Assembly (NCBI GenBank): GCA_903842345.1
Contig: CAIMLR010000042.1
Coordinates: 92,857-156,856, forward strand
Source: an uncultured Myxococcales bacterium
GTDB lineage: Bacteria > Myxococcota_A > UBA9042
Direction of reading: 5' to 3'
DNA: 64,000 nt
The position numbers and the translations under genes are program-made. The notes under the pieces are model-generated. The model searched no databases. It saw only the letters and a program-made list of their open reading frames with translations, and was not told where the DNA came from. Positions 16,890 to 42,674 of the stretch are shown here, in pieces. How positions within the stretch are numbered: position 1 is the first letter of the stretch; each line of letters starts with the position of its first letter.

Positions 16890-19358
16890 TCAGTTCTGCG
16901 GCGGCGGCGCGCCGGTCGAAGAATTGTCGAACTTGATGATGTACTGGTCGCACGTCAACTGCGCGCCCGGCTTGGTGTACACGCGGACGTAGTACCACGC
17001 GGAGTTGTCCGAGCAGATGTTCATGCCCGGGTAGCCGCTGGGACCGCAGCCGATGCCGACGTGGTCGTTGATGACGCAGCCCGGATTGACCGCGTTGGCG
17101 GGCACGCAGTTGCATTCGCCCGCGACTTCCGGGACCGGCGACTTGGTGATGGCGCCGAGCGAGTTTGAGTTGCCCTTGTTTTTGGGACCGAACGGCGCGA
17201 CGGGGCCGTAGAACGACGTCGACCAATCGTGCTGCGTTTCCGCGGAGCAGACCTGGTCGCCCGCGCCGCAGCTGCCGCGGTACACATCGAACACGAACAG
17301 GCTGCCGGGATTGAGCACGAACGAGATGCGCACGTCGTATTGGTCGCAGCTGCCGCTGGTGCTGTTGCTGATGTCCGGCGTGTCCGTCGCGTTGAACTTG
17401 TACCAGTCGCCCGATTCGCCCGGCAGGATCTGGCCGGCCTTCTGGATTGTCGCGCTGCCGTCGGGCAGGACGCCGAGGTCAATCGCGTTGCCGCAGAACA
17501 TGCCCATGTTGCCGACGTTCTGCTCCGACTTGCACTCGCAGCCGTCGCTCGGGTCGCCGTTGACGTCGTAGTAGCCTTTCGCGCACGTGCCCACGCCGCA
17601 CGCGCCGTCGATGCACTTGGAGCTGCCGCCGGCGATGGCGCCGCACGTCGCGTCGGCCGAACCGTCGTCGGTCTTGCCGTTGCAGTCGTTATCGACCGCG
17701 TCGCAGATTTCCGATGCGCCGGGGTTGATGCCGCCGTTGCCGTCGTCGCAGTCGCCGGGCTGGCCGGCGGTGTTGGACTTGGTCGCCGCGCACAGGCACA
17801 AGCCCGTCGTCGTCACGCCGTACGTGTCGTTGTCCTGATCGACGTAGTAAAGCTTGCAGCCGATGGCGCCCTGCTCGTCGGTCTTGTCGTTGCAGTTGTT
17901 GTCCACGCCGTCGCAGACTTCGTCCACGCCGGGGTGAATCTTGCCGCCGGGGCCGGGCGTGTCGTCGCAGTCAGCGGCCTGGAGAATCCATTCCGAGGTC
18001 TGCTTGGACTTGCACAAACACGCAGAATCGTTGGGATTGCCAAAGCCATCGCCGTCGAGATCGTGGTAAAAGACGGTGCAGCCCTTGGAGCCGGATTCGT
18101 CCGTCTGGCTGTTGCAGTTGTTGTCGATGTTGTCGCAGATTTCCACGCCGCCCGGGTGGATCGACGCGTTGAAATCGTTGCAGTCGCCACCGTTGTTGCT
18201 GTAGCCCGCGCCGGGGTTGTTGCACAGGCAGTTCTCCGTGCTGGGGACGCCGGTGCCGTAGCCGTCGATGTCGTTGTCCTGGTACCAGTTCGTGCAGCCG
18301 CCGGCGCCGGGCTCGTCGGTCTTGCCGTTGCAGTCGTTGTCGATGCCGTCGCCGCACACTTCCACGGACGGCGCGGGCGCGTCGCACAGGGAGAGCGCGG
18401 TCAGGTTGGTCGACGCGTTGAAGACGCACTGGCGCTTGGACACGCACTGGCCGGCGGTGCTGGTCTTGCTGCAAATCGTCGACTTGCCCTGGACCGCCCA
18501 TTGGTCCTGGCACGAACACTCGCCGCTGTCGGGCACGCACTGCTTGACCGGCTTGCCGTTGTCGGAAAGTTTGAGCTCCTGACACGTGAAGCCCGTCTTG
18601 CAGGTCTCCGTCGGGTTGCCCTTGGCGTCCTTGCCCGGCGTGCACGCCGTCATGCAGAACGAGCCGTCGATGAAGCCGTGCTGGATCGTCTTGCTCGGAT
18701 CGCTCGGATCAGGCTCGGTCGTGCTGCGGTCAAACGGGACGCAGTAGTTGCCGGTCGTGCCGTTGGTCTGGCATTCCTTGTGCTCAGCGCACGGCATGCA
18801 CAGCGTCGGGTAGGCGGGAACGCAGATGTACTGCAGGTCGGTGCCGGAGCCGCCCTGGACGCACTTCCAGTCGGTCGGGCAGTTCTCCGTGCAGACCTGC
18901 GTGCAGACTTTGCCCTGCGCGTCGTCGATGCAATAGCCGCTGTCGCAGTCGCCGTTGTTGGCGCACGGGCAGCCGAATTGGCCGGCGAGCTTGCAGATGC
19001 CGGTGTCGGTCGTCGCGTCGGCGTCGGTCGTGCCGGTGCTGTCGTCGGCGTCATTGACGATCGCGTCCGTTGCGCCGTTGTCGGATTCCGTGTCCGCGTC
19101 GCTCTTGGTCGTGTCGGTGCCCTTCACGTCGCCGTTTTTCAGGCAGTACGCGTGGATGGTCTTGTCCGTCGAACCCGAGCAATCGCTGTCGTCGCAGTCC
19201 GTGCTGCCGTCGCCGTCGTTGTCGATCTTGTCGGAGCAGAGCGCCAGCGTGTCTTCCGTCGGCGTCGGCGTCGGCGTCGAGGAACAGGCGGCTGCGAGCA
19301 GCAACACCGCGGTCAGCAGCGCGGACGCCAAGCGGGTGGTGCTAAGTGGTTGATTCAT
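16890..19358 (-). CDS. Large secreted protein with multiple MopE-like 'putative metal-binding' cysteine repeats
   Basis: Signal peptide present. At least five repeats of 'C(D/G)xxDNDC(D/N)GxTDE…Y(Y/F)xDxDxDGYG', for example 'VCDGVDNNCNDKTDEQGAIGCKLYYVDQDNDTYG'. The N-terminus is acidic (D/T/S-rich). Confidence 0.8.
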   Translation of the reverse strand: MNQPLSTTRLASALLTAVLLLAAACSSTPTPTPTEDTLALCSDKIDNDGDGSTDCDDSDCSGSTDKTIHAYCLKNGDVKGTDTTKSDADTESDNGATDAIVNDADDSTGTTDADATTDTGICKLAGQFGCPCANNGDCDSGYCIDDAQGKVCTQVCTENCPTDWKCVQGGSGTDLQYICVPAYPTLCMPCAEHKECQTNGTTGNYCVPFDRSTTEPDPSDPSKTIQHGFIDGSFCMTACTPGKDAKGNPTETCKTGFTCQELKLSDNGKPVKQCVPDSGECSCQDQWAVQGKSTICSKTSTAGQCVSKRQCVFNASTNLTALSLCDAPAPSVEVCGDGIDNDCNGKTDEPGAGGCTNWYQDNDIDGYGTGVPSTENCLCNNPGAGYSNNGGDCNDFNASIHPGGVEICDNIDNNCNSQTDESGSKGCTVFYHDLDGDGFGNPNDSACLCKSKQTSEWILQAADCDDTPGPGGKIHPGVDEVCDGVDNNCNDKTDEQGAIGCKLYYVDQDNDTYGVTTTGLCLCAATKSNTAGQPGDCDDGNGGINPGASEICDAVDNDCNGKTDDGSADATCGAIAGGSSKCIDGACGVGTCAKGYYDVNGDPSDGCECKSEQNVGNMGMFCGNAIDLGVLPDGSATIQKAGQILPGESGDWYKFNATDTPDISNSTSGSCDQYDVRISFVLNPGSLFVFDVYRGSCGAGDQVCSAETQHDWSTSFYGPVAPFGPKNKGNSNSLGAITKSPVPEVAGECNCVPANAVNPGCVINDHVGIGCGPSGYPGMNICSDNSAWYYVRVYTKPGAQLTCDQYIIKFDNSSTGAPPPQN

Positions 19359-19488
19359 CTCGTGCCGCTCCCATTCATCCGTGCGCCGCGTCTGACCGCA
19401 AAGTCCAACGCGCGACCTACCCCGTCCAAAACTACCACATCCCGCGCTGGCCGCGAATTGTTCGCCACAACCGGGGCGCAGCGCGCGA

Positions 19489-22400
19489 TCAGTTGATCTG
19501 CGCGTCGATCGCGGTGTAGCCGCCAGCCCGCACCATGTCTTTCAGCGTCAGCTGCATCTTCAGTCCGGTGCCCAAGCCCGGAATCAGGCTGCCGAGGTCA
19601 ATCGCCGGCAGCGGCACAACGATGTTGTCCAGTCCCGGAATGCCCTTGGCCAGCTGCGCGTCGATCTGCGTCTTGAGGATGTCCTCAAACGCGCCCTTCG
19701 CGTCCGCGAAGTCCTTGGTGATGTCGATAATCTCCATCATCAGGTTGAGCTTGGTGGCGTCGATCTTCACCGACAGCTCCTGCGCACCCGTCGTCGCGTT
19801 CTTGGCCATCGCGAGGTGCGCGGGCATGTCGGCATTCAGGAAGATGCCGATCGACAGCGGCTGGTCGCCGAGCTTCAGGTTCGCCTTCAGGTACACGTCG
19901 CCCGCCTGCACGCGCAGGTCCATGGGCGTCGGCTGCGCGCACGACTCGACGATCGGCGCGAGGAACAGGTCGACGTCAAACGTCGCGCCATCCAGCGAGA
20001 AGCCGCCGATCGAAGGCGCGCCCGCACCCGCCAAGCCGAGGCTCGCCGCGGTCAGCCCGTCCATCTTGAACGCGCCGCCGTACCAAATCGCCTGCAGCGC
20101 CTGGTTGATGATGTCGTCGTGCAGCGCGAGCTGCATGCGCTGCTTGTCGTCGATCACGAACTCGTCCTTGGCCTGACCCGGGCAGCCGACCTGCCGACCA
20201 ATCGAGCCGAGGTTGACGTGCGCCATCCCCTTGGGCGCCGACAGCTCCGCATCCAGCTTCACGAGGATGCCTTGCGGCGAAAACGTCAGCGTCGTCAGCC
20301 AACTGTTCAGTGTCAGCGTCACCGCGGGCATGCCCGGGATCAGCGCCGGCAGCGGCACGGCCTGGTTGATGGCGAACGTGTTGAGAATACCCAGCAGCAG
20401 CGGCGGAATCTGGTCGTTGAGCAGCTGCGTGATGGTGCCCTCCAGCGTGTTGATGTAGCTGCCGATGATCGCATTGGTGATGAAGTCGAAGAGGCCAAGC
20501 AGGCCGTTCAGGTGCAGCTTGAAGTTCTTGAGGTCGACCTTGGTGGAGATGACCTTGACCGTCGGGCCACCCGCAGGCGTCACGGCGACACCGAGCTGCG
20601 TCGCGATCTCGATCTGGCTCATCGTGATGTTGCCGGAGACCTTGATGGTGACGCTGATGGGACCGATCGACTGCTTGGCCTTGACCGCGATGTCGGCGTA
20701 GAAGTCATTGATCCAGATGTGCATTTTCATGCCGCCGTCGACCGGCTCCAGGGAAATTGTCGGCTTCTTGATCGAGAGGTTGGTGATCTTCACCTCGATC
20801 GCGCCTTGATTCAGGTTCGGCGGCAACAGCGCGTTCAGGTCCATGCCAGCCAGCGCCATCTCAATGATTGTCGCGAGATCATTGGGATTGTTGTAGTCGT
20901 GGACGCCGTCGTCGATGAAGTCCTTGCCGAGGAAGACCTGGATGCCGTCCTTGACGGGCGCGTCCTTGGGATGCGCGCCATCGGTCGGGTAGTACTGACC
21001 GGAGTAGTAGTAGCCGCGCGTCGCCTTGGACACCTGGCCGCCCAGGTCGGTCACCTCCACCTTCGCGGTATTCAGGCCGTGCTTGGCCGGCACTTGCGAC
21101 GCCCAGTTGGTCAGGCCCGTGTCCGGATCCGCGGAGCCCAGCACCGGCTTCTTCTTGGCCGCGTCGTCCCAGTTCGGCGTCAGCACCAGGTTGGCCAGAC
21201 CTGACGTGCCATCCGCCGCCGTTCCCGTCACTTGCACGGACGGCTTGCCGGTAATCGTGTCGCCCCAGTTCGGATAGTCGATCGTCAGCAGCGGCGGCGT
21301 GCCGTCCACGATGATCTGCACGTCCTTGGCGATGTCCGGCGCCTGATCGACCTGCAAATGCACGTTGTACTTGCCGTCGACGTTGAACTGCACCGTCTTG
21401 GGATCCTTGACTTTGTAGCCCTTGGCCGGATCCGTCACGGCCAGCGTCACGGTCGCGGATGGAATGATGTTGTCGTACGCATCCTTGACGACGCTGAGGA
21501 ACTGCACTTTTTCGGCATCCGCGTAGACGACCTTGGCCGGCACGGTCTGCACCTGCAGCAGCGCGGGCGGCCCCGGATCGACGAGCAGCGACGCCGGATG
21601 CAGCTGGTAGGCGTTCCAGTCGCCCGTTTCCGGCACGCAGGCGACCTTGTGGGCGCCGGCTTTCGTCGACGTGACGTAGAGGCCCGTGAGCTTGATGTCT
21701 TTGTCGCCGGAGAAGTCGATGGAGAACGGAAAATCCGGGATCGGATTGCCAAAAGCATCGTTGGCGACGCACGTCACCGAGCTCGCCGCGCCGGCTTCCA
21801 GCTCCGGCGGATCGAGAATCGCAAACAGGTGCACCGGCACGTCCGCATGGACATGCAGCGGCGCGGGCGTCTGATCGGCGAGGCCATCGACGATGCACGC
21901 GATCTGGTAGTCGCCAGCCTTCTTGAGCTGCGTCGTGAACGCCTTGGGCTGCGGCGCGTCGACGGGCGACACTTTCACGGAGAAGCCGTCAAGGACCTCA
22001 TTGCCGTACTTGTCCGCAGCCGTGCACGTCACCGCAACCGGCGTATTGGCGACGACGTCCGTGGGCGCGGGCGTCCCGGGCGCGCTGCCCGCGGGCGGCT
22101 GCAACTGCGTGTCGAGCGTCACCGCGAGGCCAGCGAGGACGTCCAAATCGGCAGGCGTCGGATCGACAAGCTTGTACGCCGGCAGTTGGCAAGCCACCTG
22201 ATACAGGCCGACCTTGGCCAGCGTCACGTGCACATCCTGCACGGCGACCGGCTGCCCGGGGCCGCCAGTAATCGTCACCGTCGCGGCTGACGGGAGCGGC
22301 ACTTCGGCGCCATAGCCCTGGTTCGCGTCGTCCGCGACAACCGGCTTGAACGTGCGGCACTTCACGGCAAAAGGGATCCCCGCGCGGGCGTCGCCGATGA

Positions 22401-22590
22401 TTTCCGTTTCCAGTTTGAGCGTCGTCGGGTCAACCGTGCCGTCGCCATTGCCGCCATTGCCGCCATTGATGCTGCCGGAACCCGCGTCGGGCGACGGATC
22501 GCTGCACGCGGACAGGCCCAAGGCGCTGACAGTGAAGAACCACGCGGCCACAGATGCCAGCGAATTCAATCGGCCAAACCGTCCGGACAT
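19489..22590 (-). CDS. 1,033-aa secreted lipoprotein. It has N-terminal Ig-like beta domains and a C-terminal tandem BPI/LBP/CETP-like (TULIP) lipid-binding fold, which is inferred.
   Basis: Lipobox 'ALGLSAC'. The N-terminal half has repeated roughly 100-aa Cys-pair segments ('…YQVACQL…', '…YQIACIV…', '…HKVACVP…'). The C-terminal roughly 430 aa are Cys-poor and their sequence pattern is collinear with both halves of mammalian BPI (details in findings). The ORF-track start at 22710 is an upstream extension; the start used is ATG 22590. Confidence 0.7.
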   Translation of the reverse strand: MSGRFGRLNSLASVAAWFFTVSALGLSACSDPSPDAGSGSINGGNGGNGDGTVDPTTLKLETEIIGDARAGIPFAVKCRTFKPVVADDANQGYGAEVPLPSAATVTITGGPGQPVAVQDVHVTLAKVGLYQVACQLPAYKLVDPTPADLDVLAGLAVTLDTQLQPPAGSAPGTPAPTDVVANTPVAVTCTAADKYGNEVLDGFSVKVSPVDAPQPKAFTTQLKKAGDYQIACIVDGLADQTPAPLHVHADVPVHLFAILDPPELEAGAASSVTCVANDAFGNPIPDFPFSIDFSGDKDIKLTGLYVTSTKAGAHKVACVPETGDWNAYQLHPASLLVDPGPPALLQVQTVPAKVVYADAEKVQFLSVVKDAYDNIIPSATVTLAVTDPAKGYKVKDPKTVQFNVDGKYNVHLQVDQAPDIAKDVQIIVDGTPPLLTIDYPNWGDTITGKPSVQVTGTAADGTSGLANLVLTPNWDDAAKKKPVLGSADPDTGLTNWASQVPAKHGLNTAKVEVTDLGGQVSKATRGYYYSGQYYPTDGAHPKDAPVKDGIQVFLGKDFIDDGVHDYNNPNDLATIIEMALAGMDLNALLPPNLNQGAIEVKITNLSIKKPTISLEPVDGGMKMHIWINDFYADIAVKAKQSIGPISVTIKVSGNITMSQIEIATQLGVAVTPAGGPTVKVISTKVDLKNFKLHLNGLLGLFDFITNAIIGSYINTLEGTITQLLNDQIPPLLLGILNTFAINQAVPLPALIPGMPAVTLTLNSWLTTLTFSPQGILVKLDAELSAPKGMAHVNLGSIGRQVGCPGQAKDEFVIDDKQRMQLALHDDIINQALQAIWYGGAFKMDGLTAASLGLAGAGAPSIGGFSLDGATFDVDLFLAPIVESCAQPTPMDLRVQAGDVYLKANLKLGDQPLSIGIFLNADMPAHLAMAKNATTGAQELSVKIDATKLNLMMEIIDITKDFADAKGAFEDILKTQIDAQLAKGIPGLDNIVVPLPAIDLGSLIPGLGTGLKMQLTLKDMVRAGGYTAIDAQIN

Positions 22591-24065: not shown

Positions 24066-24809
24066 TCACCAGCTCGCCGTCCGCCCGCCGTCGACGGTCA
24101 GGAAGCTGCCGGTCACAAATCGGCTGCACTGGCTCAAATACACCACGGTTTCAGCGATCGCCCGGCTGCCGGCCCCGGGGTCGGCGGCCATCAACTGCCC
24201 TTGCGGCACGATGTCCAGCAGGCGCTGCCACACGGATTCAGGCAGATCGTCCGGCCGCAGCACGGCGCCGGGCACAATCGCGTTCACCGTGACGTCAGGC
24301 GCCAGCTCAGCGGCCAAACCGCGCACGGCGGCATGCAGCGCGGCCTTGGCCATCGAGTGCGCCAAATAGCCGTGGAACGGAATTTGCGCCGCCAAATCGC
24401 CAAGTATGACGATGCGGCCATCCCCGGACGCCGAGAGGAACGGGTGGGCCGCCAGCGCCAGCGCGACCGGCGCCCGGGCATTTTGAGCGAACGCCAGGTC
24501 GAGTTGCGCCGTGTCCAACGCGGCGATCGGCGTCAAGTCGTAGCTGGCCGCCGCGAGCACCAGCAGCGAGAGGCCGCCCAGGTGCTCCGCCGCAGCCGCA
24601 GCCAGTCGCGGCAGGGCAGCGCTATCGGTCAATTCAGCCTGCAGGGCGATCGCCCGGCGACCCAGCGCGTGGGCGGCGGCCACGACTTCTTCGGCGGCAT
24701 GCGGGTCGCGGCGATACTGGATCGCGACGTCAAAGCCCGCCTCGGCCAGCGCCAGCGCAATCGCCCGGCCAAGCCGTTTGTGTCCCGCGGTAATCAGCGC
24801 CTTCTTCAC
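24066..24809 (-). CDS. Short-chain dehydrogenase/reductase (SDR) family oxidoreductase
   Basis: Rossmann fold 'ALITAGHKRLGRAIALALAEAGFDVAI'. The YxxxK active site is in the expected place. Confidence 0.8.
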   Translation of the reverse strand: MKKALITAGHKRLGRAIALALAEAGFDVAIQYRRDPHAAEEVVAAAHALGRRAIALQAELTDSAALPRLAAAAAEHLGGLSLLVLAAASYDLTPIAALDTAQLDLAFAQNARAPVALALAAHPFLSASGDGRIVILGDLAAQIPFHGYLAHSMAKAALHAAVRGLAAELAPDVTVNAIVPGAVLRPDDLPESVWQRLLDIVPQGQLMAADPGAGSRAIAETVVYLSQCSRFVTGSFLTVDGGRTASW

Positions 24810-25660
24810 GGGGCCTCCCTCAAGAAATCGCCCACGTCAGCGACGAATCGGCTTGGTTCTTCTTCCTGCGGACAGTGGCCGCTGGCATCGTACACAAGCA
24901 GGCGCGCTTGTGGCACGCGGCGCTCCACGTGGCGGATGATGTGGCGCGGGACAAGCCGGTCGTGGCGCCCCCAAATCAGCAGCGTGGGCGCCTGCACGCG
25001 CGGCAGCAACGGCTCCAGGGCTTGCAGGTCCTTGCGAAACGTCCTGGCGATGCGCAGCGTTGCGACGATTCCGCCCGGGGAACGCAGCGGCGCCAGGAAA
25101 TGCGCCATGTAGTGGTCGTCGATCGGCAGGTGCTTGTACGCGCCGTGCGTCAGGCCGAGCTTGAGGATCAGCGCGAAGCCCGGCAGCGCCCACAGCGGCG
25201 CCAGCGCTTCATGCTGCGTCTCCGCCAGCAACGCCGCCGGGAACATGCCGTGGGCCGCGGGACCGACGAGGATGAGCTTCTGCACGCGATCCGGGTGCGC
25301 CGCAGCCAACCAAAGCGCAAGCGCGCCGCCCATCGAACTTCCGCAGACGTGCGCGGACGGCAGCTCCAGCCGCTCGAGCAGTTCGACGAGCCGCGCCACT
25401 TGCGCCGGATAGCGGTAGTCGACGCCCGCCGGCTTGTCTGACCAGCCGATGCCCGGCAGGCACACGGCGATGACGTCAAACCGCTGACAGAGCTGCGGCA
25501 GCACAAAGCGCCAAGCCCACGACGATTGGGCAAAGCCGTGGATCAGCAGCAGCGGCGGTCCCGCGTGCGGACGCGGCCGGACAAAGTGCACGCGCGCGCC
25601 GGAGAACGACGTCAGCGCCAGCCATTGGCCAGCCGGATGCCAGGAGTGCGTGGTGTCCAT
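24806..25660 (-). CDS. Alpha/beta-fold hydrolase
   Basis: 'LLLIHGF' oxyanion motif and 'GSSMGG' nucleophile elbow. The likely start 'MDTTHSW' is at 25660. Confidence 0.8.
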   Translation of the reverse strand: MDTTHSWHPAGQWLALTSFSGARVHFVRPRPHAGPPLLLIHGFAQSSWAWRFVLPQLCQRFDVIAVCLPGIGWSDKPAGVDYRYPAQVARLVELLERLELPSAHVCGSSMGGALALWLAAAHPDRVQKLILVGPAAHGMFPAALLAETQHEALAPLWALPGFALILKLGLTHGAYKHLPIDDHYMAHFLAPLRSPGGIVATLRIARTFRKDLQALEPLLPRVQAPTLLIWGRHDRLVPRHIIRHVERRVPQARLLVYDASGHCPQEEEPSRFVADVGDFLREAP

Positions 25661-26349
25661 CACGGCGCCAGATCGCTGTTGAGCGCCGGCAGCGTGACGC
25701 CAAACGTGCCCTCGACGTCGACCGTGTTCAGCGCGGACTTGCACGCGGCTGCGACGGCGGTGGCGTCCTTGCAATCGTCATTGGCGCCGAGGAATTGCTG
25801 CAAGTGGCCGGCGAAACGGCCCGTGACGAGCCCGCCCGGCGTCGCGCTCCACTGCTTGACGTTGATGTCGCCGGCCAAGCCGGGACACGTCGAACGGTAG
25901 CGGATGTTGCCGTAGGAGAAGTCGAGGTAGGGCGGCGTGCAGCTGAACGGATAGTCGGCGGCTTTGGGTACGAACGGCGGGAAGCCCGGCGCGTTGACGA
26001 GGTTGCCGAGCACGAAGTTGAGGTCGAGCGGGTCCTTGAACGCGCCCAGCTGCCACGTGTCGTGGATCGCCAGCGAAACGGCCGGCGGCTGCATGTGCGT
26101 GTCGCCAAAAACGACCGTGCTCGAGGTGCCGGTCAGGTCGCGCTGCACGGTGAACGTGCGACCGTCGAACTTCTGGCCGTGGAACGTGAACTTGATGCAG
26201 TAGCCCTGCTTCCAGTTCTCGCCGCAGTCGACGCCCGCGCTGGTGTCGTTCGCGACGGCGGCATCCTCCACAGCCGCCGTTTCCGCCGGGGCGGCTGTGC
26301 TGCCGCAGGCCGCGACGCAGAAGCCCAGGATCAGGATGAAAGCGCGCAT
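25660..26349 (-). CDS. Secreted lipoprotein, hypothetical
   Basis: Lipobox 'VAACGS' after ATG at 26349. The upstream extension in the ORF track is rejected. Confidence 0.5.
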
Positions 26350-26491
26350 TCTGGCTCTCCAACGGTGCGGCGCGAACCAGCCGCAGCGACGATCTTGGTC
26401 GCATGCCGACCCACACGCAAGCACGCCGGCTCGCTTGTGCCAATGGCCGGAAGACTGCAAACTGCTGAAGTTTGTCGCCGAGGCGCCCCAG

Positions 26492-29400
26492 ATGTCCCAC
26501 CCGTTCCGCATCCTTGTGCCCCTGCTGCTGCTGATTTCCAGCGCTTGCGGCGAAATTCAGATCGTGCCGCTGGACACCGCGCCAGAGGACGCGCTGGCGG
26601 ATACGGGCGATGCGGTGGCGCTCCCGCTGTCCGTGACAATCGAGTCGCCGCACAACGGCGCTTCGGTCAACGTCGGCGAGACGATTCATTTCTCCGCGCT
26701 GGTGACCGGCGGGACGGTGGCCTATGACCTGCTGACCGCGACGTGGACGACTGCGGACAAGAAGGTGTTGGCTACTGGGCCACTGGACGCCGCGGGGCGC
26801 TCCGCGTTTGACAAGGCGGACCTGCCCGCCGGGCCGCAGTCGCTCCATGTGGAAGTGACCGACGGCAACGGCGCGCATGCCGGCCGCGACCTTGGGCTGC
26901 TGATCAACACGCCGCCGACCGCGCCGTCGGTGAGCATCAAGCCGGAGAAGCCGACGACGCTGGACGACCTCGTGCCGGTGCTGATCAAGCCGCCGACGGA
27001 CATCGACCGCGCGCCGGACAAGCTGCACGTGCGTTTTGACTGGCACAAGGCGGGCGAAACGACGGTGCATCCCGGCGGCGCGAACGGCGAACTGATGGCG
27101 GGGACGCACAAGCGCGGCGAGACGTGGATTGTGACCGCAGTCGCCAATGACGGCACGGGCGACAGTCCCGGCGCGACGGCGCAGGTGGTGATTGGCGATG
27201 CGCCGCCCAACGTGCCGGTGCTGAAGATCACGCCGGCGAATGCGGATTTGCTGAGCGACGTGACGTGCGAGCTGGTGACGCCCGCCAGCGACGTCGACGG
27301 CGATGCGGTCACGGTGGCGTGGGGCTGGCGCGTCGGCGCGTACGTGAACCCGGGCGTGACGACGCAGACCGTCAACATCGACAAGCTGGCGTCGGACGCC
27401 AAGGGCACGTCGCTGCTGGCGGGCGCGCAGGTCTACTGCACCGCGCTCGCGTCCGACGACCAGGTGAGCGCGCCGCTGGCGACGAGTCCCACGCTGACGG
27501 TGCAGGCTTTTGACGTCTGCAAGTCCAAGCTCGACCCGTGCGACAAGAAGGCCACGTGCGTCAACTCCAGCACGCTCGAGCCGACGTGCACGTGCAACAG
27601 CGGCTTCACCGGCGACGGCTATTTCTGCCTGGACATCGACGAATGCGCGTCCGGCTACTGCAGCGTCAACGCCACCTGCAACAACACGATCGGCGGCTTT
27701 CAGTGCACCTGCAAGGACGGCTACACCGGCAACGGCGTGACCTGTACCGACGTCGACGAGTGCCAAGCCACGCCCGCACCGTGCGGCGTCAACGGCGCAT
27801 GCACAAACAAGGACGGCAGCTACCTCTGCACCTGCCAACCCGGCTATTCCGGCGACGGGGTGACGTGCAAGGACGTCGACGAGTGCCAAATCGTCCCGGA
27901 AGTGTGCGACGCCAACGCGGCGTGCAAGAACAGCATCGGCAGCCACACCTGCACGTGCGACAAGGGCTTCCTCGGCGACGGCAGCTTCTGCGTGGACATC
28001 GACGAATGCCTGGACGGCACCACCGGGTGCTCGCCGGACTCAAACTGCACCAACAAGCCGGGCGGCTTCTACTGCCAGTGCAAACCCGGCTACAAGGGCG
28101 ACGGCAAGATCTGCGTGCAACAGGACGAATGCCAGAACGGCGACGCGATCTGCTCCCCCGACGCGCTGTGCACCGACACGCCGGGCAGCTACACGTGCAC
28201 GTGCAAGACCGGCTTCACCGGCGACGGCAAGGACTGCACGGACATCGACGAGTGCGCCACGGGCGCGTTGACCTGCGGTGCGCATGCGGCGTGCAAGAAC
28301 ACGGTCCCGGGTGCGCAGTGCGTGTGCCAGACGGGCTATTTCATGGACGCGACCGGCGCGTGCGTGAACATCAACGAGTGCGCTGCCGCCGTGTACCCGT
28401 GCGACGTCAACGCGTCGTGCGCCGACACGGACGGCAGTTACACCTGCACGTGCAATGGCCCGATCTACTCGGGCTCGGGCAAGTACTGCAGCCAGAACGA
28501 CCTGTGCAAAACGACGACGTGCGCCAACAACGCCACGTGCGCGATGGTCGGCGCCGACCCCATCTGCACGTGCGATTCCGGCTACAGCGGCTTTGGCAAC
28601 ATCGGCTGCACGGAGGTCGACGAGTGCGCGCTGGGGATCGCGACCTGCTCAGGCAGCGCGACGTGCACCAACACGCCGGGCAGCTACACCTGCGCGTGCA
28701 ACCCAGGATTCACGGGGGACGGATTCACGTGCGTGGACGTCAACGAGTGCGCCACGACGGCGAGCCCGTGCGCAGTCGACGCCACCTGCAAGAACACGCC
28801 GGGCAGCTTCACGTGCAACTGCAAGCCGGGCTATTCGGGCTATGGCACCGCGTGCACGGACATCGACGAATGCGCCGCCACCGTCCCGCCATGCAGCGCC
28901 AGCGCGACGTGCAGCAACACACTGGGCAGCTTCCAGTGCACCTGCGACGCCGGCTTCGCGGGCGACGGCGTGACGTGCACGGACATCAACGAGTGCGTCC
29001 TGGGCACCGCGGGATGCGCCCCCGACGCGACGTGCAGCAACACGCCGGGCGGCTTCCAGTGCGCCTGCAACGCCGGGTTCACCGGCGACGGCAAGACCTG
29101 CGCGGACATCAACGAATGCACAAACGGCGTCGCCAACTGCAGCCCCAACGCCGCGTGCAACAACACGCCCGGCAGCTTCAACTGCGCCTGCAAATCCGGC
29201 TTCAGCGGCGACGGCAAGACGTGCACGGACATTGACGAGTGCCCGGCCATCGACTGGTCGTGGGACTTCAACAGCATTGGCGTCAGCGGCTGGACGCTGG
29301 ACCCGCCGAACCTGTACGCGCCGAGCAATCCGCAGTCATCGGGCGTGCCGCCCAGCGTCGCCTGGCAGCTGTGGAACGGCGTGCTCTACTACGGCAATCC

Positions 29401-30466
29401 GGCGGTGGGCAATTACGCAACGGCGGTCGGCGGCGACACGTGGGCCAACAAGGGCAACGCGACGGGACCGAGCGTGACACTGTCCTCGCACCCGTGGCAT
29501 CACCTCGGCTTTGACGTGCTCATCAACACCGACGTCGGGACGTACTACGACAAGTTCCTCGTGCAGTTGGTCATCGGCTCGGGCACGAGCGAGCAGGTCG
29601 TGACGGTGTGGGACAAAGCCTCGCAGACCGCGGCGATGGGCGTCAACAAGCACTACACGGTGTACTTGAACGGCTACGGCGGCAAATCCGTGCGCGTCCG
29701 CTTCGCCTTTGACACGGTGGACGGCGGCAACAACGCGACGCAGGGCGTGGAGGTCAGCAATCTCTCGATTCGCGGCGCCGGCACACCGTGCAACCCCTAC
29801 GCGGAATGCGCCAACACGCCCGGGAGCTTCACGTGCACGTGCAACGCGCCGTACGCGGGCGATGGCGTGCAGGCGTGCAACGTCCTGGGCTCGCAGAGCC
29901 AGCCCGCGGCCAACTGCAAGGCGATCTTCGACCTGGACGGCACGCTCGCCGACGGGTTCTACTGGCTGAAATGGACCGCCGCGCCCGCCACCCAGATGTG
30001 GTGCGACAGCGCCGGCTGGACGCGCGTCGTGCAGAACGACTTCAACGCGAGCGCGGGCACCTGGTCGCCCAAGACGCTGACGACGTGCGGCAGCAGCGGC
30101 CTCCTGGGCGGCGTCGGCGTGGCCGGCAAGAACTACGCGATGAGCGACTCGATCGGCAGCCTGCCCAGCCACAGCCAGATGCGTGTCCAGGGCACCGTGC
30201 AGTGCATCGACGCGTGGCTCGGCGAGGCCGTGATGCTGCAGGTCGACGGCCTGCAGGTCTGGACGGACAAAGTGGTCAACCCGATGGCGACGGGCAGCAC
30301 GCCCGACTCCTGCGGCAACACGACGCTCGCCGACTTGAAGCGCTACCCCAAGGCAACGTTTGACCATGCGTCGGCCAACGCCCTCATCCAGTTCAGTTCG
30401 ACCCTGAACAGCGACGCCGCGACCGCGTCGTACGGCATCGACGACATCAACGTCTGGGTCAAATGA
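26492..30466 (+). CDS. Giant secreted multidomain protein (1,325 aa) with four parts: Ig-like N-terminal region; about 15 tandem EGF domains, mostly calcium-binding type; a beta-rich region; and a fibrinogen-related-domain-like C-terminus.
   Basis: Signal peptide '[14 protein letters not shown]'. There are 13 or more repeats of 'D(I/V)(D/N)EC…C.N..G(S/G)(F/Y).C.C..G(F/Y).GDG..C', for example '[38 protein letters not shown]'. The C-terminal '[21 protein letters not shown]…[14 protein letters not shown]' matches the fibrinogen C-domain A-subdomain pattern. Confidence 0.85.
27508..29245 (+). repeat. Intragenic tandem array of about 15 EGF-module coding repeats (roughly 115-125 bp each)
   Basis: The protein-level repeat 'D(I/V)DEC…C.N..G.F.C.C..G…GDG..C' recurs with a period of about 40 aa. 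Confidence 0.85.
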
Positions 30467-32025
30467 CGGAGAGCGCGTTGGCCAAGCAGCGCCACCCGCG
30501 CGGCATCGGCTTCATCATCGGCAACGAAGGCTGCGAGCGTTTCTCGTTCTACGGAATGCGCGCCATCCTGACCGAGCACATGATCAGCCTGTACGCGCAG
30601 ACGGCGCACCTCAGCGCCGCGGATGCCAAGACCGCTGCCACCGCCGATTATCACCTGTTCACCGCCGCCGCCTACGCGCTGCCGATGGTCGGCGCGATCC
30701 TCGCTGACCGCCTGCTGGGCAAATACCGGACCATCTTTTGGCTGTCGCTTGTCTACTGCCTTGGCCACGCGGTGCTGGCGATCGGCGAAGAGTCAATTGG
30801 CGGCATGCACCTCGGCCTCGCGCTCATCGCCGTGGGTTCGGGCGGCATCAAGCCGTGCGTGTCCGCGTTCGTCGGCGACCAGTACCGCGCGGGGCAGGAG
30901 AAGCTGGTCGAGAAAATCTTTCAGGCCTTCTACTTCATCATCAATTTCGGCTCGTTCTTCGCGACGCTGCTGGTGCCGTGGCTGAAGGTGCGGTTTGGCC
31001 CGGCGGTGGCGTTTGGCATCCCGGGCGTGCTCATGGGCCTGGCGACGTTCATCCTGTGGCTCGGTCGCAAGCGGTACAACCATGCGCCGCCGATGCCGGG
31101 CGGGCGGTTGGGGATCCTGGACGCGGCGAGCTCGACGCTGCTGTTCCTGTCGCTGGGCTCGCTGTGGTTTACGGGCGGGCTGCCGTGGTACGGGAAGCTC
31201 GGGGTGTCGCTGGTGTGCATCGCCGCGGGGCTGACGCTGTTTGCCTGGCGGGCGCGGATTCAGCCGGATCGCGGCGTGCTGTCCGTGCTGTGGCAAGGGC
31301 TGCGCCATCGCAAGCGCGATGAAACGCTGTGGCAAACCGCGGAGCGGCGTCTGGACGCGGCGGCGGTGGATGGGACGCGCGCGGTGCTGCGGCTGCTGTC
31401 CGTATTCGCGCTGGTGAGCGTGTTCTGGGCGCTGTTTGACCAACGCGGGTCGTCGTGGGTGGTGCAGGCCAAAGACATGCTGCGGACGTTTGACACGCCG
31501 CTCGGGCCGCTGACCGTACAGGCCAGCCAGATCAACGCGCTCAACCCGCTGTTCGTGATGTTGCTGATTCCGCTGATGGCGGGCGTGCTACTGCCGGCGT
31601 GGCGGCGGCTCGGCGGGCGCGTCACGCCGCTGGGCAAGATGACCGCGGGGATGGCCATTTCCGCGCTGTCGTTTGTGGCCATCGCGCTGATCCAACGGCA
31701 GATCGACGCGTCGGCGCGCGAGTCGGTGAGCGTGCTGTGGCAGGTGCTGCCGTTCGTGCTCATCACGCTGGGCGAAGTGCTGGTGTCGGTGACGGGGCTG
31801 GAATTCGCTTACACGCAGGCGCCGCGGGCGATGAAGTCGACGGTCGTGGGCCTGTGGTCGCTCTCGGTTTCCGTGGGCAACCTGCTCGTCGCGGCGCTTG
31901 CCGGGCTGAAGTCGCTGCCGCCGGAGCGGTTCTTCTGGGTGTTTGCGGCGCTGATGGCGCTGTCCGCGGCGCTGTTTGCCTGGCGCGCACGGTCGTTCCG
32001 CGGGCAGGTCGTGCTACAGGGCTGA
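30463..32025 (+). CDS. POT/PTR2 family proton-dependent oligopeptide transporter (MFS)
   Basis: PTR2 signature '[21 protein letters not shown]' and about 12 TM segments. Its start overlaps the stop of the EGF-protein gene (ATGA). Confidence 0.9.
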
Positions 32026-32452: not shown

Positions 32453-34900
32453 CTACTTGCAGGTCGCCGGCGCGCAGACCTTCTTGCCAGTGGCCTTGCC
32501 GTTCGTGCCCAGCGCGGCGACGCACTTGGTGCCGCCGTCCTTGCCGGCGCAATCGGCGTCACTGGCGCAACCCGGGGCGCAGCGGCCGTCGGCGGCGGAA
32601 CCGCTGGCGGCGATGTTGCTGCAGGCGTAGTTGCCGGCGCAGTCGGTGTCGAGGCCGCACGGCAGGCAGGACTTGGCCTTCTTGCAGATCGGCACGATGG
32701 CGGCCTTGCTGATGTCCGTGCGCGGCAGCCACTGGTTCTGCAGGTCGCAGGTCATGCCGTCGTTGCCGCTGCCGCAGTCGGCGTCCTTGCTGCACAGGCC
32801 GGTGCAGTAGCCCTTGCCGGCCGCGTCGGGCAGGCAGCCGAGACCGGCTTTGCACTCCGGATCGGCGCCGGCGGCGGGATTCGCATTGCACGCTTCGCCA
32901 ATCGCCTTGGTCGCAGTCGCGCCGACGGTCGCGCAGAGGAACTCGACCTTGGCGATGCTGTCCGGGCCCGCGGCGATCGTCATCGGCAGGCACTGTTCGC
33001 CAGCCGCGGCGCACTTCTTGGTGGCGCTGCAGTCTTCCAGCGAGTTGGTCGCGGCGATCGGGTAGCAGACCGGCAGCCAGAGGTCGTCGCGGATGTCATC
33101 CAGCGTGTTGTTGTAGCCAAGACGCAGCGAGCGGCAGAACGTCTTGTAGCTGGTGCCGCCGAGCGAGATGGACGCCGGGCAGTCGCTCTTGCTGGAGCAG
33201 TAGTCCGCGCAGAAGCCGGGCTGGACGGTGCCGGTCGACGACTGCGTGTTGAGGCAGTAGCCGCTGTCGCAGAACGCGTCATTGGCCGCGGGGCCACAGA
33301 CTTCGCCGCCCTTGGCGCCCTTGGCGTCCGGCGCGACGCAGACGCCGTTGATTGTGTCATGGCCGATCGGGGTCGCATCCGTGGGCAGGTCCAGCTTGTG
33401 GACGAACGCCTTGCAGTAGGACGACGCGCCCGCGCAGTCCTTGGACGCCGCGCACTTGCCGGCGGCCTTGGGCAGGTAGGCGCAGATGTTGAGCGACAGC
33501 TCAAAGTCGTAGATGCCGTCGGTCGCGCCGGTGCCCTGCGGGTTGTCAACGTCCAGCGGAATCTCTTCCACGCCGCACTGCTGATCGGCCGCGCAGTCGC
33601 TGTTGGACTTGCACAGGCTGCCGCAGCTGCCATCGACGCACGCGTACGGGTTCTGGCAGGCCGCGCCGGGCTTGGTCGCGCCCGTGCTGTTGACGTACGG
33701 ATCGCACGTCTCGCCGGGCTTGACGGTCTTGGCGGCGATCGGCTGGCAGCCGGGCTGGAACGCCGGGTAGACGAGCTTGGTCGCATCGTTCGGATCGGGC
33801 TCGCCGGCGAGCTTCTTGACGCCATTCCAGTACGGCCGGCAGAAGAAGCCGTTGCCGCAATCGCCGTCGATCTGGCAGTCCTTGGGCAGGCAGAGGCTGG
33901 CCGAATAGGCCGGGTTGCTGGCGACCTTGATGTTCGCCTTGCAGGAGTAGCCGCCAGCGCCGCCGCCCGGCTGGGTCGCGCAATCGGCGTCGGTCTTGCA
34001 GAAGCCGAGGCAGAAGCCCGCACCGGAGCAGAAGTCATTGGCGCACAGGGAGAGGTCGCCCGCGGTTGGATCGCTGTTGCACGCCTGGCCCAGCGTGGCG
34101 CCGGCCTTGTACGTGTAGGCGCCGTCGGTGCCGACGGGGGTCTTGAGCGCCGGGGCGCACATCTGCTGGTAGGCGCCATAGATGAGCTGGAGGTCGCACG
34201 CGTCGCCCGCGTCGCAGTCGCTGTCCGCCTTGCAGGGCTTGAAGCTGCTCTCAGCGACGCAGTAGATGTAGTTCGCGGCGTTGCCATTTTGCGGAGAAAG
34301 CAACTGCACGCACGCGTACTTGGTGCCGTACGGGCCGTCGACCGCGCCGCCGCAGTCGCTTGTCGCGCCCACGTCTTCAATGCCATCCGCGCCGGTCGCG
34401 CCCGTCGTGTTGTTCTTGTCGTCCGTCGCGATGTTGCACTGCTTGGTGCACACGCCCGCGTTGCACACGCCGTCTTCGCACTGGGCGTTAATGCAGTCAA
34501 AGTAGGTCGTCATCGCCGTCTGGTCCGACGTGTCGGCGGGGATCGGGCAGTCCTTGTTCTGGCCGCACGGCTCGCCAAACTTCTTCAGCGGCTTCTTCAG
34601 GTCGGCGATGCACTTGTGGGTCGCGTCGCACTTCTGGCCGGTGCTGCACGCGCCGCAGGATTTTGGGCATTCCTTGATGAAGCCGCACTCGGCGCCGTGG
34701 TCAGCGCAGCAGGTGGCGGCGGAGCCGTCCGAACCCACGGTGTCGCCCGTGCCGTCAGCGACGGAGATGGCGTCAGAGCCGCTCGTGTCGCCGGTGATCG
34801 CGGTGTCGGCCGCCGTCGAGCTTGTCGTGGAGCTGCCACAGCCGCTCAGGCCCATGGCCAGGCTACAGGAGATTGCGAGGAGGACGTTGCTGAGCTTCAT
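32453..34900 (-). CDS. Large Cys-rich secreted lipoprotein with repeated 'C-x-[STK]-[DN]-x-D-C' knots
   Basis: Lipobox 'GLSGC'. There are 80 or more Cys, in repeats such as 'CKTDADCATQPGG', 'CKSNSDCAADQQCG', 'CSKDADCGSGNDGMTC' and 'CASDADCAGKDGGTKC'. The start used is 'MKLSNVLLAIS' at 34900. Confidence 0.7.
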   Translation of the reverse strand: MKLSNVLLAISCSLAMGLSGCGSSTTSSTAADTAITGDTSGSDAISVADGTGDTVGSDGSAATCCADHGAECGFIKECPKSCGACSTGQKCDATHKCIADLKKPLKKFGEPCGQNKDCPIPADTSDQTAMTTYFDCINAQCEDGVCNAGVCTKQCNIATDDKNNTTGATGADGIEDVGATSDCGGAVDGPYGTKYACVQLLSPQNGNAANYIYCVAESSFKPCKADSDCDAGDACDLQLIYGAYQQMCAPALKTPVGTDGAYTYKAGATLGQACNSDPTAGDLSLCANDFCSGAGFCLGFCKTDADCATQPGGGAGGYSCKANIKVASNPAYSASLCLPKDCQIDGDCGNGFFCRPYWNGVKKLAGEPDPNDATKLVYPAFQPGCQPIAAKTVKPGETCDPYVNSTGATKPGAACQNPYACVDGSCGSLCKSNSDCAADQQCGVEEIPLDVDNPQGTGATDGIYDFELSLNICAYLPKAAGKCAASKDCAGASSYCKAFVHKLDLPTDATPIGHDTINGVCVAPDAKGAKGGEVCGPAANDAFCDSGYCLNTQSSTGTVQPGFCADYCSSKSDCPASISLGGTSYKTFCRSLRLGYNNTLDDIRDDLWLPVCYPIAATNSLEDCSATKKCAAAGEQCLPMTIAAGPDSIAKVEFLCATVGATATKAIGEACNANPAAGADPECKAGLGCLPDAAGKGYCTGLCSKDADCGSGNDGMTCDLQNQWLPRTDISKAAIVPICKKAKSCLPCGLDTDCAGNYACSNIAASGSAADGRCAPGCASDADCAGKDGGTKCVAALGTNGKATGKKVCAPATCK

Positions 34901-41641: not shown

Positions 41642-41777
41642 GACAGGCTCCTGTTGGCGGTCGCAAAAACGAACCGTCTGAACGGGAACATAGGCGTGAG
41701 TCCACGGCGAATGTCGGAAAATTGTCACAGCTTCCGGACCGCTGCGGTCCGCTACTTGGGCTGCAAGAACACCGCGG

Positions 41778-42674
41778 TCAGGCCGCCAACGCCGCGGTCA
41801 GCGCGGCGGTGAGCTCCGGATACAGCCAGACAAAACCGCCGCGCTGCGCCGCTTCAGGCACGACGCGCTGACCCGCGAGCAGGACTTCATCGGCCATCTG
41901 ACCAAACGCCAGCCGCAGGGCAAAGGCCGGCGCGGGCAGGAACGCCGGACGGTGGAGGATCGCGCCGAGCGCGCGGGCAAAATCGCCCTGGCGGACGGGC
42001 TCGGGGGAAACGGCGTTGATCGGACCGGCGAGCCGGTCATCGGTCAAGGCGAATGCAATCAGCCGCAGGAGATCGTCCCGGTGCACCCAGGACAGCCACT
42101 GCATGCCATCGCCCACCGGACCGCCCACGCCCGCGCGGAACACCGGCAGCAGCTTGCCGAGCATGCCACCTTCAGCGGAGAGCACGACGCCGATGCGCAG
42201 CAGCGCCACGCGCATGCCCGCAGCCTGTGCCGTCAGCGCCGCCGCCTCCCAATCGCGACACACGTCGGCGAGAAAGCCGCGTCCCAAGGGGCTGGCTTCC
42301 GTCAGCACCGTCTCGCGCCCATCGCCGTAGCAGCCGATCGCGGATGCCGACACCAGCACCTTGGGCGGCTCCGGCATCGTCGCCAGTGCAGCCACCAACT
42401 GCCGCGTCAACGCGCCGCGTGTCTGTTCAATCTGCGCCTTCTGTTGCGCCGTCCAGCGCTTGTCCGCAACTGGCGCGCCGGCCAAATGGACAACGGCATC
42501 CCAGCGCAACGCCGGATCAAAGCGAAACTGCGGGTCCGCCGATAGCCAGAGCACGTCGTGATCATCGGCGGGTGGCGTGCGCTGCAACCGCCAGACTTCA
42601 TGGCCGGCCGTGCGCAGGAACGGCACGAGCGCGCGACCGACGAGCCCTGAGGCCCCTGTGACTGCAATCCGCAT
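41778..42674 (-). CDS. TIGR01777/YfcH-type NAD-dependent epimerase/dehydratase-family protein
   Basis: N-terminal 'IAVTGASGLVGRALV' Rossmann motif and a C-terminal DUF1731-like region. Confidence 0.8.
   Translation of the reverse strand: MRIAVTGASGLVGRALVPFLRTAGHEVWRLQRTPPADDHDVLWLSADPQFRFDPALRWDAVVHLAGAPVADKRWTAQQKAQIEQTRGALTRQLVAALATMPEPPKVLVSASAIGCYGDGRETVLTEASPLGRGFLADVCRDWEAAALTAQAAGMRVALLRIGVVLSAEGGMLGKLLPVFRAGVGGPVGDGMQWLSWVHRDDLLRLIAFALTDDRLAGPINAVSPEPVRQGDFARALGAILHRPAFLPAPAFALRLAFGQMADEVLLAGQRVVPEAAQRGGFVWLYPELTAALTAALAA

Follow-up and report, generated by a model that had tools for sequence, protein, structure and literature searches.

Calcium-binding EGF (cbEGF) modules, MAM domains, fibrinogen-related domains (FReDs) and collagen C-propeptides are usually seen as hallmarks of the animal extracellular matrix. 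What, then, does a bacterial gene encode that appears to combine them, is it truly bacterial, and does its product work together with the peptide transporter whose gene it overlaps? We asked these questions of a gene on the forward strand of a 64,000-nucleotide stretch of DNA from an uncultured Myxococcales bacterium (assembly GCA_903842345.1, contig CAIMLR010000042.1, positions 92,857 to 156,856), referred to here as the window. An initial annotation, made from the letters of the sequence, had described a fibrillin/Notch-like array of cbEGF domains, preceded by Ig-like domains and followed by a fibrinogen-like C-terminus, that was translationally coupled and functionally linked to a transporter of the POT family. 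We found that these domains of animal type, or close structural relatives of them, are joined in one native Myxococcota lipoprotein with dozens of bacterial relatives; the protein appears to be an undescribed arrangement of known modules. The gene and the parts of its product are as follows.

26243..30466, + strand: long open reading frame (ORF), from the ORF list
26492..30466, + strand: EGF-array lipoprotein gene, 1324 amino acids (aa), ATG at 26492
26492..26548, + strand: signal peptide with lipobox, residues 1-19 (direct reading of the sequence and orthologue comparison)
26552..27511, + strand: spacer of about three Ig-like beta-sandwich repeats, residues 21-340 (weak profile matches)
27512..29227, + strand: uninterrupted array of 14 EGF modules, residues 341-912 (Pfam, motif positions and Cys table)
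29228..29248, + strand: N-terminal piece of the split cbEGF 15, residues 913-919, DIDECPA (Ca-binding motif and Cys1)
29249..29782, + strand: InhA-type MAM/CBM-like beta-sandwich, residues 920-1097, nested between Cys1 and Cys2 of cbEGF 15
29783..29881, + strand: C-terminal piece of the split cbEGF 15, residues 1098-1130, supplying Cys2-Cys6
29906..30040, + strand: degenerate YCDxxxxGGGW fibrinogen/COLFI-type head, residues 1139-1183 (sub-threshold NF040941 match)
30041..30463, + strand: C-terminal jelly-roll domain, residues 1184-1324 (AlphaFold2 (AF2) model; invariant Cys1199 and Cys1274)

The EGF array was confirmed with the hidden Markov model (HMM) that the initial annotation had proposed as a check: Pfam EGF_CA (PF07645) matched the protein with 316.6 bits in 13 stretches (E=1.8e-96; gathering cutoff 27). 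EGF_3 reached 412 bits in 14 stretches, and cEGF, EGF and hEGF matched likewise. Direct reading gave 15 EGF modules in total with exactly 6 Cys per module. An N-terminal D/N/E/Q-x-D/N-E-C motif opens 13 of the 15, and the exact C-x-[DN]-x-x-G-x-[FYW]-x-C-x-C site is present in 11. Within the uninterrupted array, modules 2-8 and 10-14 carry the motifs of cbEGF modules, and modules 1 and 9 are classed by motif as non-calcium-binding. The first count of about 15 modules, about 13 of them cbEGF, was therefore exact when compared with the Cys table and the motif positions; the accompanying statement that the modules are consecutive is true of 14 but not of module 15, which is interrupted by about 180 aa. 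Consecutive cbEGF modules are separated by single-residue linkers, and the mean pairwise identity among modules is 47%. At the DNA level the array shows a 123-nt periodicity, and the repeats match one another at only 69-76% of positions, indicating that they are old and diverged. Being repeats of about 40 aa constrained by their cysteines, single cbEGF modules offer too little signal for a phylogenetic test of horizontal transfer. TB (8-Cys) and hybrid domains of fibrillin and LTBP were absent among the Pfam matches of the protein, as were the LNR repeats, NOD/HD domains, transmembrane segment and ankyrin repeats of Notch. Membership of the fibrillin or Notch families was rejected, since the protein has neither TB nor LNR domains and ends in a jelly roll.

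At the end of the array the EGF pattern breaks after DIDEC (residue 913) and picks up again at residue 1098, leaving a gap of about 180 aa. When residues 913-919 and 1096-1130 were joined in silico, they gave a full EGF_CA match over profile positions 1-43 of 43 (37.1 bits against the cutoff of 27, E=3.8e-9). The inserted domain of the window protein itself drew no direct Pfam match, and neither of the MAM-family models (PF00629 and PF20773) recognised it at E<=10. An exhaustive HMMER search, however, retrieved 320 homologues of it at E<=1e-3, and of 30 aligned family members 22 matched PF20773 (InhA-like MAM) and 5 matched PF00629 (MAM). The profile of the insert family matched the MAM domain in the structure of the Bacillus InhA metalloprotease (4yu5; E=6.7e-6), and the insert copy of one orthologue matched choice-of-anchor J (NF038128). 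AF2 modelling of residues 872-1135 from a 32-sequence alignment gave a predicted local distance difference test (pLDDT) score of 85-87 in all five models; the predicted fold is a beta-sandwich with EGF-type hairpins on its flanks, two EGF beta-hairpins being visible. Through its own sequence family and the modelled fold, the insert is classed as an InhA-type MAM sandwich. A motif scan counted 31 such cbEGF-with-nested-MAM units among the best 150 representatives, with up to four per protein; among the proteins that carry the unit, 29 have at least three cbEGF motifs, and 19 of those 29 have a lipobox-like N-terminus. One relative (P0066, 1385 aa) shares the N-terminal region, the EGF array and the nested MAM-type domain with the window protein and differs from it by an added Lamin-tail domain.

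The terminal domain was approached through its predicted structure, as no Pfam or NCBIfam model matched residues 1184-1324. The best AF2 model of residues 1130-1324, built from a 6-sequence alignment, reached a pLDDT of 89 and a predicted template-modelling (TM) score of 0.84, and is an all-beta jelly roll with 13 strands and a single helix, which lies in the head. In Foldseek searches the best matches of this model were the C-propeptides of procollagens III and I (E=6.6e-6, TM score 0.44-0.56), and jelly rolls of CBM type were also among the best fold matches. COLFI (PF01410), the HMM of fibrillar-collagen C-propeptides, did not match the window domain. Nor did Fibrinogen_C (PF00147), either with the whole protein at E<=0.01 or with the isolated C-terminus at E<=10, and FReDs were absent among the top 50-60 fold matches in either list for the terminal model. 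A canonical FReD was rejected, since both HMM and fold fail and the head is followed by a jelly roll, not by the B and P subdomains. The initial annotation had itself named a non-FReD fold of the C-terminus as an outcome that would speak against its proposal, and a jelly roll is what AF2 returned. Its description of a fibrinogen-like C-terminus thus finds some support in the head, whose motif appears to be related to the A subdomain, but not for a FReD as a domain, and it was accurate in noting that the sequence beyond the head diverges from the FReD pattern.

The FReD-like string noticed at first corresponds to residues 1141-1184, that is, to the head. Its Cys1142 and Cys1171 are conserved, and their 29-residue spacing equals that of the first disulfide of fibrinogen gammaC. 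NCBIfam NF040941 matched the head of the window protein at 20.4 bits (E=4e-4; cutoff 30) over profile positions 1-35 of 46. A metagenome scan with a bacterial-only alignment revealed that the same head-plus-jelly-roll unit ends the proteins of two further loci, L087 and L088.

L087 1935-3695, + strand: fibre-like protein, 586 aa, with a C-terminal head-plus-jelly-roll unit
L088 3994-6603, + strand: MopE-repeat lipoprotein, 869 aa, with nine MopE-type repeats and a C-terminal head-plus-jelly-roll unit

Both carry canonical GGGWT heads (YVCDMKNGGWTRV in L087 and CDMSTDGGGWTLV in L088), which scored 45 and 41 bits with NF040941, over its cutoff; the L087 head also reached 25.9 bits with Pfam COLFI, just below the cutoff of 26.2. 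A profile of six C-terminal units found nothing in the PDB. Only the broader nine-member profile (A7) reached fibrinogen and the intelectins, and marginally so: E=1.3e-3 for fibrinogen beta (1ei3_B) and E=0.004-0.06 for XEEL and intelectins, with FIBCD1 and tachylectin-5A weaker. By these profile matches, the segment of residues 1139-1183 is placed as a probable, degenerate member of the FReD/intelectin/COLFI-type head. Well-conserved GGGWT heads (NF040941, 58-65 bits) are also present in P0066 and in P0022 (351 aa), where a Cys-rich C-terminal region of another type comes after them, so that the head is not tied to a single kind of downstream domain. P0022, which bears the NCBI name 'calcium-binding protein', is linked to the window protein only by one cbEGF module and a weak head match. 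The L087 protein also showed a very weak match to the N-terminal model of the Bdellovibrio mosaic adhesive trimer fibre (E=0.0048, far below the cutoff), which we note as a lead only.

The clearest relatives of the jelly roll were the orthologues of the window protein, the proteins of loci L087-L090, and a protein of the choanoflagellate Salpingoeca kvevrii (P0003, from EukProt). The last is a secreted coiled-coil protein that ends in two tandem, headless copies of the jelly roll (residues 313-447 and 460-594; BLASTP E=2e-11 and 6e-11), and it was the only eukaryotic jelly-roll relative found; L090 may be another relative that is not bacterial. A word-indexed search with residues 913-1324 returned 8000 candidates, all of them EGF proteins, of which only P0003 and P0022 were informative. 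The same type of search gave no match with the isolated C-terminus or with the orthologue alignment, and missed even the protein's own cluster, so the terminal domain is under-sampled with respect to its phyletic range. Judged from the different proteins that it ends, the head-plus-jelly-roll unit is mobile. It is tempting to see in it an undescribed domain family, with members in Myxococcota and a headless form in a choanoflagellate, that bridges the FReD (through the head) and the fibrillar-collagen C-propeptide (through head and beta-sandwich); we hold this to be a speculative and rather unlikely proposal. If it were true, the unit would indicate, taken with the cbEGF modules and the nested MAM, that a design of rod, lateral globule and terminal knob in the style of laminin and fibrillin arose independently, or earlier, in bacteria.

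At the other end of the protein, the start was placed at the ATG at 26492 because a signal peptide with a lipobox follows it and because orthologues begin at the same site; the 1324-aa product is also the one chosen by gene callers on independent assemblies. The lipoprotein signal was judged by eye from the N-terminal sequence. The signal peptide is short and basic-hydrophobic, the lipobox reads LLLISSAC and is followed by GE, and Cys19 is the predicted lipidation site. Three orthologous loci have the same start, with LLALVAAGC/GE or LLCLVVAGC/GE, and the distant orthologues P0038 and P0047 carry the lipoboxes LGLAAC and VATAAC, respectively. By these features the window protein is classed as a bacterial lipoprotein with a type-II signal peptide. 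The initial annotation had mentioned neither this anchor nor the MAM-type domain inside cbEGF 15.

Between the lipobox and the array, the Ig-like domains of the initial annotation were recovered as profile signals of Ig type, all of them weak, so that the assignment stands with low strength of support. Big_3_5 matched the N-terminus of the window protein at E=0.029, and Big_7 matched that of the orthologue P0038 at E=2.8e-4. The orthologue profile (A6) matched the solved bacterial Ig domain 9kvu at E=5.8e-4 and the PKD domains of KIAA0319L at E=0.028. The third Ig-like repeat contains a conserved Cys pair. The N-terminus of P0038 additionally resembles the C-terminal region of a myxosortase-dependent M36 peptidase model (E=3.4e-8).

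We then considered whether such a protein could be a eukaryotic fragment, brought in by contamination or a chimeric assembly, or an animal gene that was transferred very recently and does not function. The animal-type repertoire of cbEGF, MAM and FReD/COLFI-like domains invites this reading, and over about 30 aa single modules share 59-74% identity with those of fibrillin and LTBP. However, the transporter protein encoded next to the EGF gene was found in identical form on 16 contigs of the ENA and Logan assemblies, and the EGF gene lies directly upstream of it in all six loci shown. The nearest genomes are uncultured Myxococcales or Myxococcota metagenome-assembled genomes (MAGs) from lake metagenomes, with 98, 91 and 91% identity in the transporter, and the EGF protein has orthologues in four or more species-level Myxococcota MAGs and, more distantly, in two more genomes (P0038 and P0047). 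All 98 Cys are kept in four orthologues, whose alignments show no frame disruption and a per-region identity of 60-96%. Compared with the loci L009 and L010, identity is as follows.

Ig-like region: 78-80%
EGF array: 60-72%
MAM insert: 80-81%
Head: 73-89%
Terminal jelly roll: 64-67%
POT, for comparison: 91%

Sequence change has thus been faster in the array and in the terminal jelly roll than in the transporter, as is expected of an exposed surface protein. The GC content of the gene is 0.67, the same as that of its flanks, and GC at third codon positions is 0.91, against 0.80-0.90 in neighbouring genes. The gene also lacks introns, begins with the signal of a bacterial lipoprotein and shares 4 bp with the gene of a bacterial transporter. 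Contamination and mis-assembly are excluded by these data, and we give the reading as a eukaryotic fragment or recent transfer practically no credence, the independent assemblies, orthologues, composition and bacterial signals having effectively refuted it. The statement of the initial annotation that metazoan-matrix-like modules are present in a bacterial gene therefore holds: the gene is native and its cbEGF array is confirmed by HMM.

The transporter gene lies immediately downstream, and the two genes overlap as follows.

30463..32025, + strand: POT/PTR2-family proton:oligopeptide symporter, 520 aa (PF00854, TIGR00924, ExxERF motif)
30463..30466, + strand: ATGA stop/start overlap of the EGF gene and the POT gene (direct reading)

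Its assignment was clear, with 278.5 bits for PF00854 PTR2 (E=1e-82; cutoff 27), 180 bits for TIGR00924 (cutoff 130) and a visible ExxERF motif, the TM1 criterion of the POT family. The overlap reported by the initial annotation is real: the junction reads AAATGACG (...GTC AAA TGA, with the ATG at 30463). From it a functional link had been drawn, in which the EGF surface protein captures or helps to degrade proteinaceous material and the coupled POT imports di- and tripeptides. Peptides are indeed a food of predatory or saprophytic Myxococcota, and the gene order lends this some support, for the ATGA overlap is kept in the close relatives L007, L009 and L010, and in L086 the POT gene is directly behind the EGF gene (an adjacency known without the junction sequence), with POT identity of 91-98% across these four loci. 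We detected no terminator-like site between the two genes, and because of the 4-bp overlap, which leaves no room for one, they are very likely, indeed almost certainly, co-transcribed in this lineage.

The pairing seen in close relatives did not extend to more distant ones. P0038 and P0047 have the full architecture and are 43-49% identical in the MAM domain, but no POT gene follows either: P0038 lies in a partly syntenic locus and is followed by two Band_7 genes, and P0047 is followed by a convergent amidase gene. Conversely, no EGF gene was found within 10 kb of Myxococcota POT homologues at 50-54% identity, and the genes upstream of the distant POT homologues are unrelated ones, encoding a tRNA methyltransferase, a hybrid histidine kinase, surface proteins with TIG domains, or unknowns. 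Pfam and NCBIfam scans revealed no protease or other catalytic domain in the EGF protein, and a protease or degradative role was rejected for want of one. In addition, stop/start overlaps also chain three genes upstream of the EGF gene.

24066..24809, - strand: SDR gene, 4-bp overlap with the alpha/beta-hydrolase gene
24806..25660, - strand: alpha/beta-hydrolase gene, 1-bp overlap with the next lipoprotein gene
25660..26349, - strand: gene for a 229-aa lipoprotein without a family match, third in the overlapping chain

These three genes have no obvious common function, so overlaps are routine here and not a sign of shared function. With the adjacency confined to L007, L009, L010 and L086 and gone in P0038, P0047 and the distant POT loci, the functional link did not stand. 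Going by gene order, the EGF-POT pairing is probably a recent accident and not a conserved functional module, and we regard the peptide-import account as quite improbable. In two distant Myxococcota loci (L016 8073-9836, + strand, and L017 7914-9935, + strand), a TIG-domain secreted protein precedes the POT homologue, and both TIG proteins end in a hydrophobic stretch with an Arg-rich tail resembling a C-terminal sorting tag; other surface proteins thus occupy the place that the EGF protein has in the window.

What might the EGF protein do? We lean, by a modest margin, towards a lipid-anchored, Ca2+-stiffened stalk with distal binding domains, that is, an adhesin-like surface protein that would reach far from the cell envelope as an adhesin or a spacer. 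In this proposal the N-terminal lipid would hold the protein in the cell envelope, and the topology would leave both beta-sandwiches distal. With Ca2+ bound, the array would be stiff and resistant to proteases, a rod some 40 nm long (15 modules of about 2.7-3 nm each), because tandem cbEGF modules of fibrillin type with one-residue linkers behave in this way. The distal MAM-type and CBM/procollagen-propeptide-like domains could then bind glycan or protein on cells, matrix or particles, and the terminal unit may mediate oligomerisation, like the collagen C-propeptide. A role as a tip on a stalk is suggested by the fold families concerned and by the terminal unit capping fibre-like, MopE-repeat and choanoflagellate coiled-coil proteins alike.

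Several points weigh against the stalk proposal. Ca2+ binding by the array is read from its motifs, and the Ig-like assignment of residues 21-340 is plausible from weak profile signals. For the terminal unit, the other four AF2 models had pLDDT values of 63-77, and the TM score to the procollagen propeptide is only about 0.5. Both beta-sandwiches are putative ligand binders by analogy with their fold families, and CBM-like folds also serve structural roles that involve no binding. The L4 and LF domains of laminin have no known ligand (PMC5338690). Surface exposure and placement at the outer or the inner membrane cannot be read from sequence, and all homologues are unnamed metagenomic proteins.

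The protein might instead be a released or loosely held, fibrillin-like component of a matrix or biofilm that self-assembles through its procollagen-propeptide-like domain and binds no foreign ligand. Compared as a whole domain, the terminal unit is indeed structurally closest to the trimerising procollagen C-propeptide, cbEGF rods build the microfibrils of fibrillin, and many other large secreted lipoproteins rich in Cys are encoded in the window. The conserved lipobox, however, points to membrane attachment, the protein has no TB/8-Cys domains, collagen G-X-Y repeat or coiled coil to drive multimerisation, and the TM score of 0.44-0.56 to the propeptide is modest. We consider a matrix component unlikely, and the anchored stalk remains the reading that we prefer.

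The neighbourhood of the gene contains further proteins of similar character.

16890-19360, - strand: lipoprotein with about 70 Cys and repeated CDGxDNDCNGxxDE units, which by eye are the 'putative metal-binding motif' repeat (Pfam Cu-binding_MopE in L088)
19489-22590, - strand: 1033-aa protein whose N-terminus is a lipid-binding domain of LBP/BPI/CETP type (PF01273, 35 bits, E=1.5e-8); Big_1 matches weakly
32453-34900, - strand: lipoprotein of 815 aa, rich in Cys and without a Pfam or NCBIfam match; its gene converges on the POT gene
32424-32389, - strand: 15-bp GC-rich hairpin with a T-run, after the 815-aa gene
39530-41797, - strand: lipoprotein with a Cys-rich middle and a C-terminal domain (FGFEDGDKGWDM...VVLLDGIVLSL) that by eye resembles a further MAM/choice-of-anchor-type sandwich

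The LBP/BPI/CETP fold is mostly eukaryotic and occurs here in the same neighbourhood as the EGF gene. The hairpin is the only strong terminator-like site of the region.

With regard to novelty, EGF_CA, InhA-like MAM, choice-of-anchor J and NF040941 are each already catalogued, bacteria included. By contrast, no member of the family is informatively named, the few named ones being 'hypothetical protein', and in the literature, which could be searched only incompletely, we came across no study of cbEGF arrays in Myxococcota or other bacteria, nor of a relationship between FReD and COLFI. The full architecture, the recurrent cbEGF-with-nested-MAM unit and the terminal head-plus-jelly-roll unit appear to be undescribed. 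Bacterial cbEGF arrays make it testable whether they bind Ca2+ and are stiffened by it, as fibrillin is, and prokaryotic, intron-free cbEGF rods would be convenient for biophysics. How those animal domains are related may become clearer from a terminal domain that joins a fibrinogen/COLFI-type head to a jelly roll. Should the protein serve a predatory or particle-attached myxobacterium as a long-reach adhesin, it would also bear on how these cells make contact with prey or substrates. The coupling to the POT gene adds nothing to the significance of the EGF protein.

Comparison with known systems places the individual parts. The transporter gene belongs, without special features, to the POT/PTR2 family, alongside DtpA-D and YjdL, and is unusual only in its position directly behind an EGF gene in this clade. 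The head resembles NF040941, FReDs and intelectins in its length of about 45 aa, its helix, its Cys...Cys spacing and its GWT motif. With COLFI domains (PDB 4ae2, 5k31 and 6fzv) the terminal unit shares its place at the C-terminal end of an elongated protein, and the L087 head comes near the COLFI cutoff, but upstream of it the window protein has EGF modules and not a collagen G-X-Y triple helix. The insert is likened to InhA-like MAM, MAM and choice-of-anchor J domains by the matches of its family to these models and to the InhA structure, with which the predicted fold agrees; unlike InhA, the window protein has no associated M6 metalloprotease domain, and its own copy of the insert is too divergent for a direct match.

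The array is fibrillin- and LTBP-like in its six-Cys modules, its D-x-D/N-E-C calcium motif and C-x-N-x4-F/Y-x-C-x-C site, its one-residue cbEGF linkers and its long unbroken run of modules, whereas the bacterial lipoprotein anchor and the non-animal N- and C-terminal domains set the window protein apart from both. In laminin, a CBM/MAM-like L4 domain is inserted within an LE module and leaves the rod unbroken (PMC5338690). The window protein likewise has a sandwich inside an EGF-type module of a rod-like array, with the rod continuing past the lateral globule. The insertion point differs, being between Cys1 and Cys2 of a 6-Cys cbEGF module here and between Cys3 and Cys4 of an 8-Cys LE module in laminin, and the insert belongs to the InhA-type MAM sequence family and not to L4. 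The laminin LE/L4 arrangement is thus the closest known design by analogy, with no sequence homology implied, and the cbEGF-with-nested-MAM unit may be regarded as a bacterial counterpart to that unexplained arrangement.

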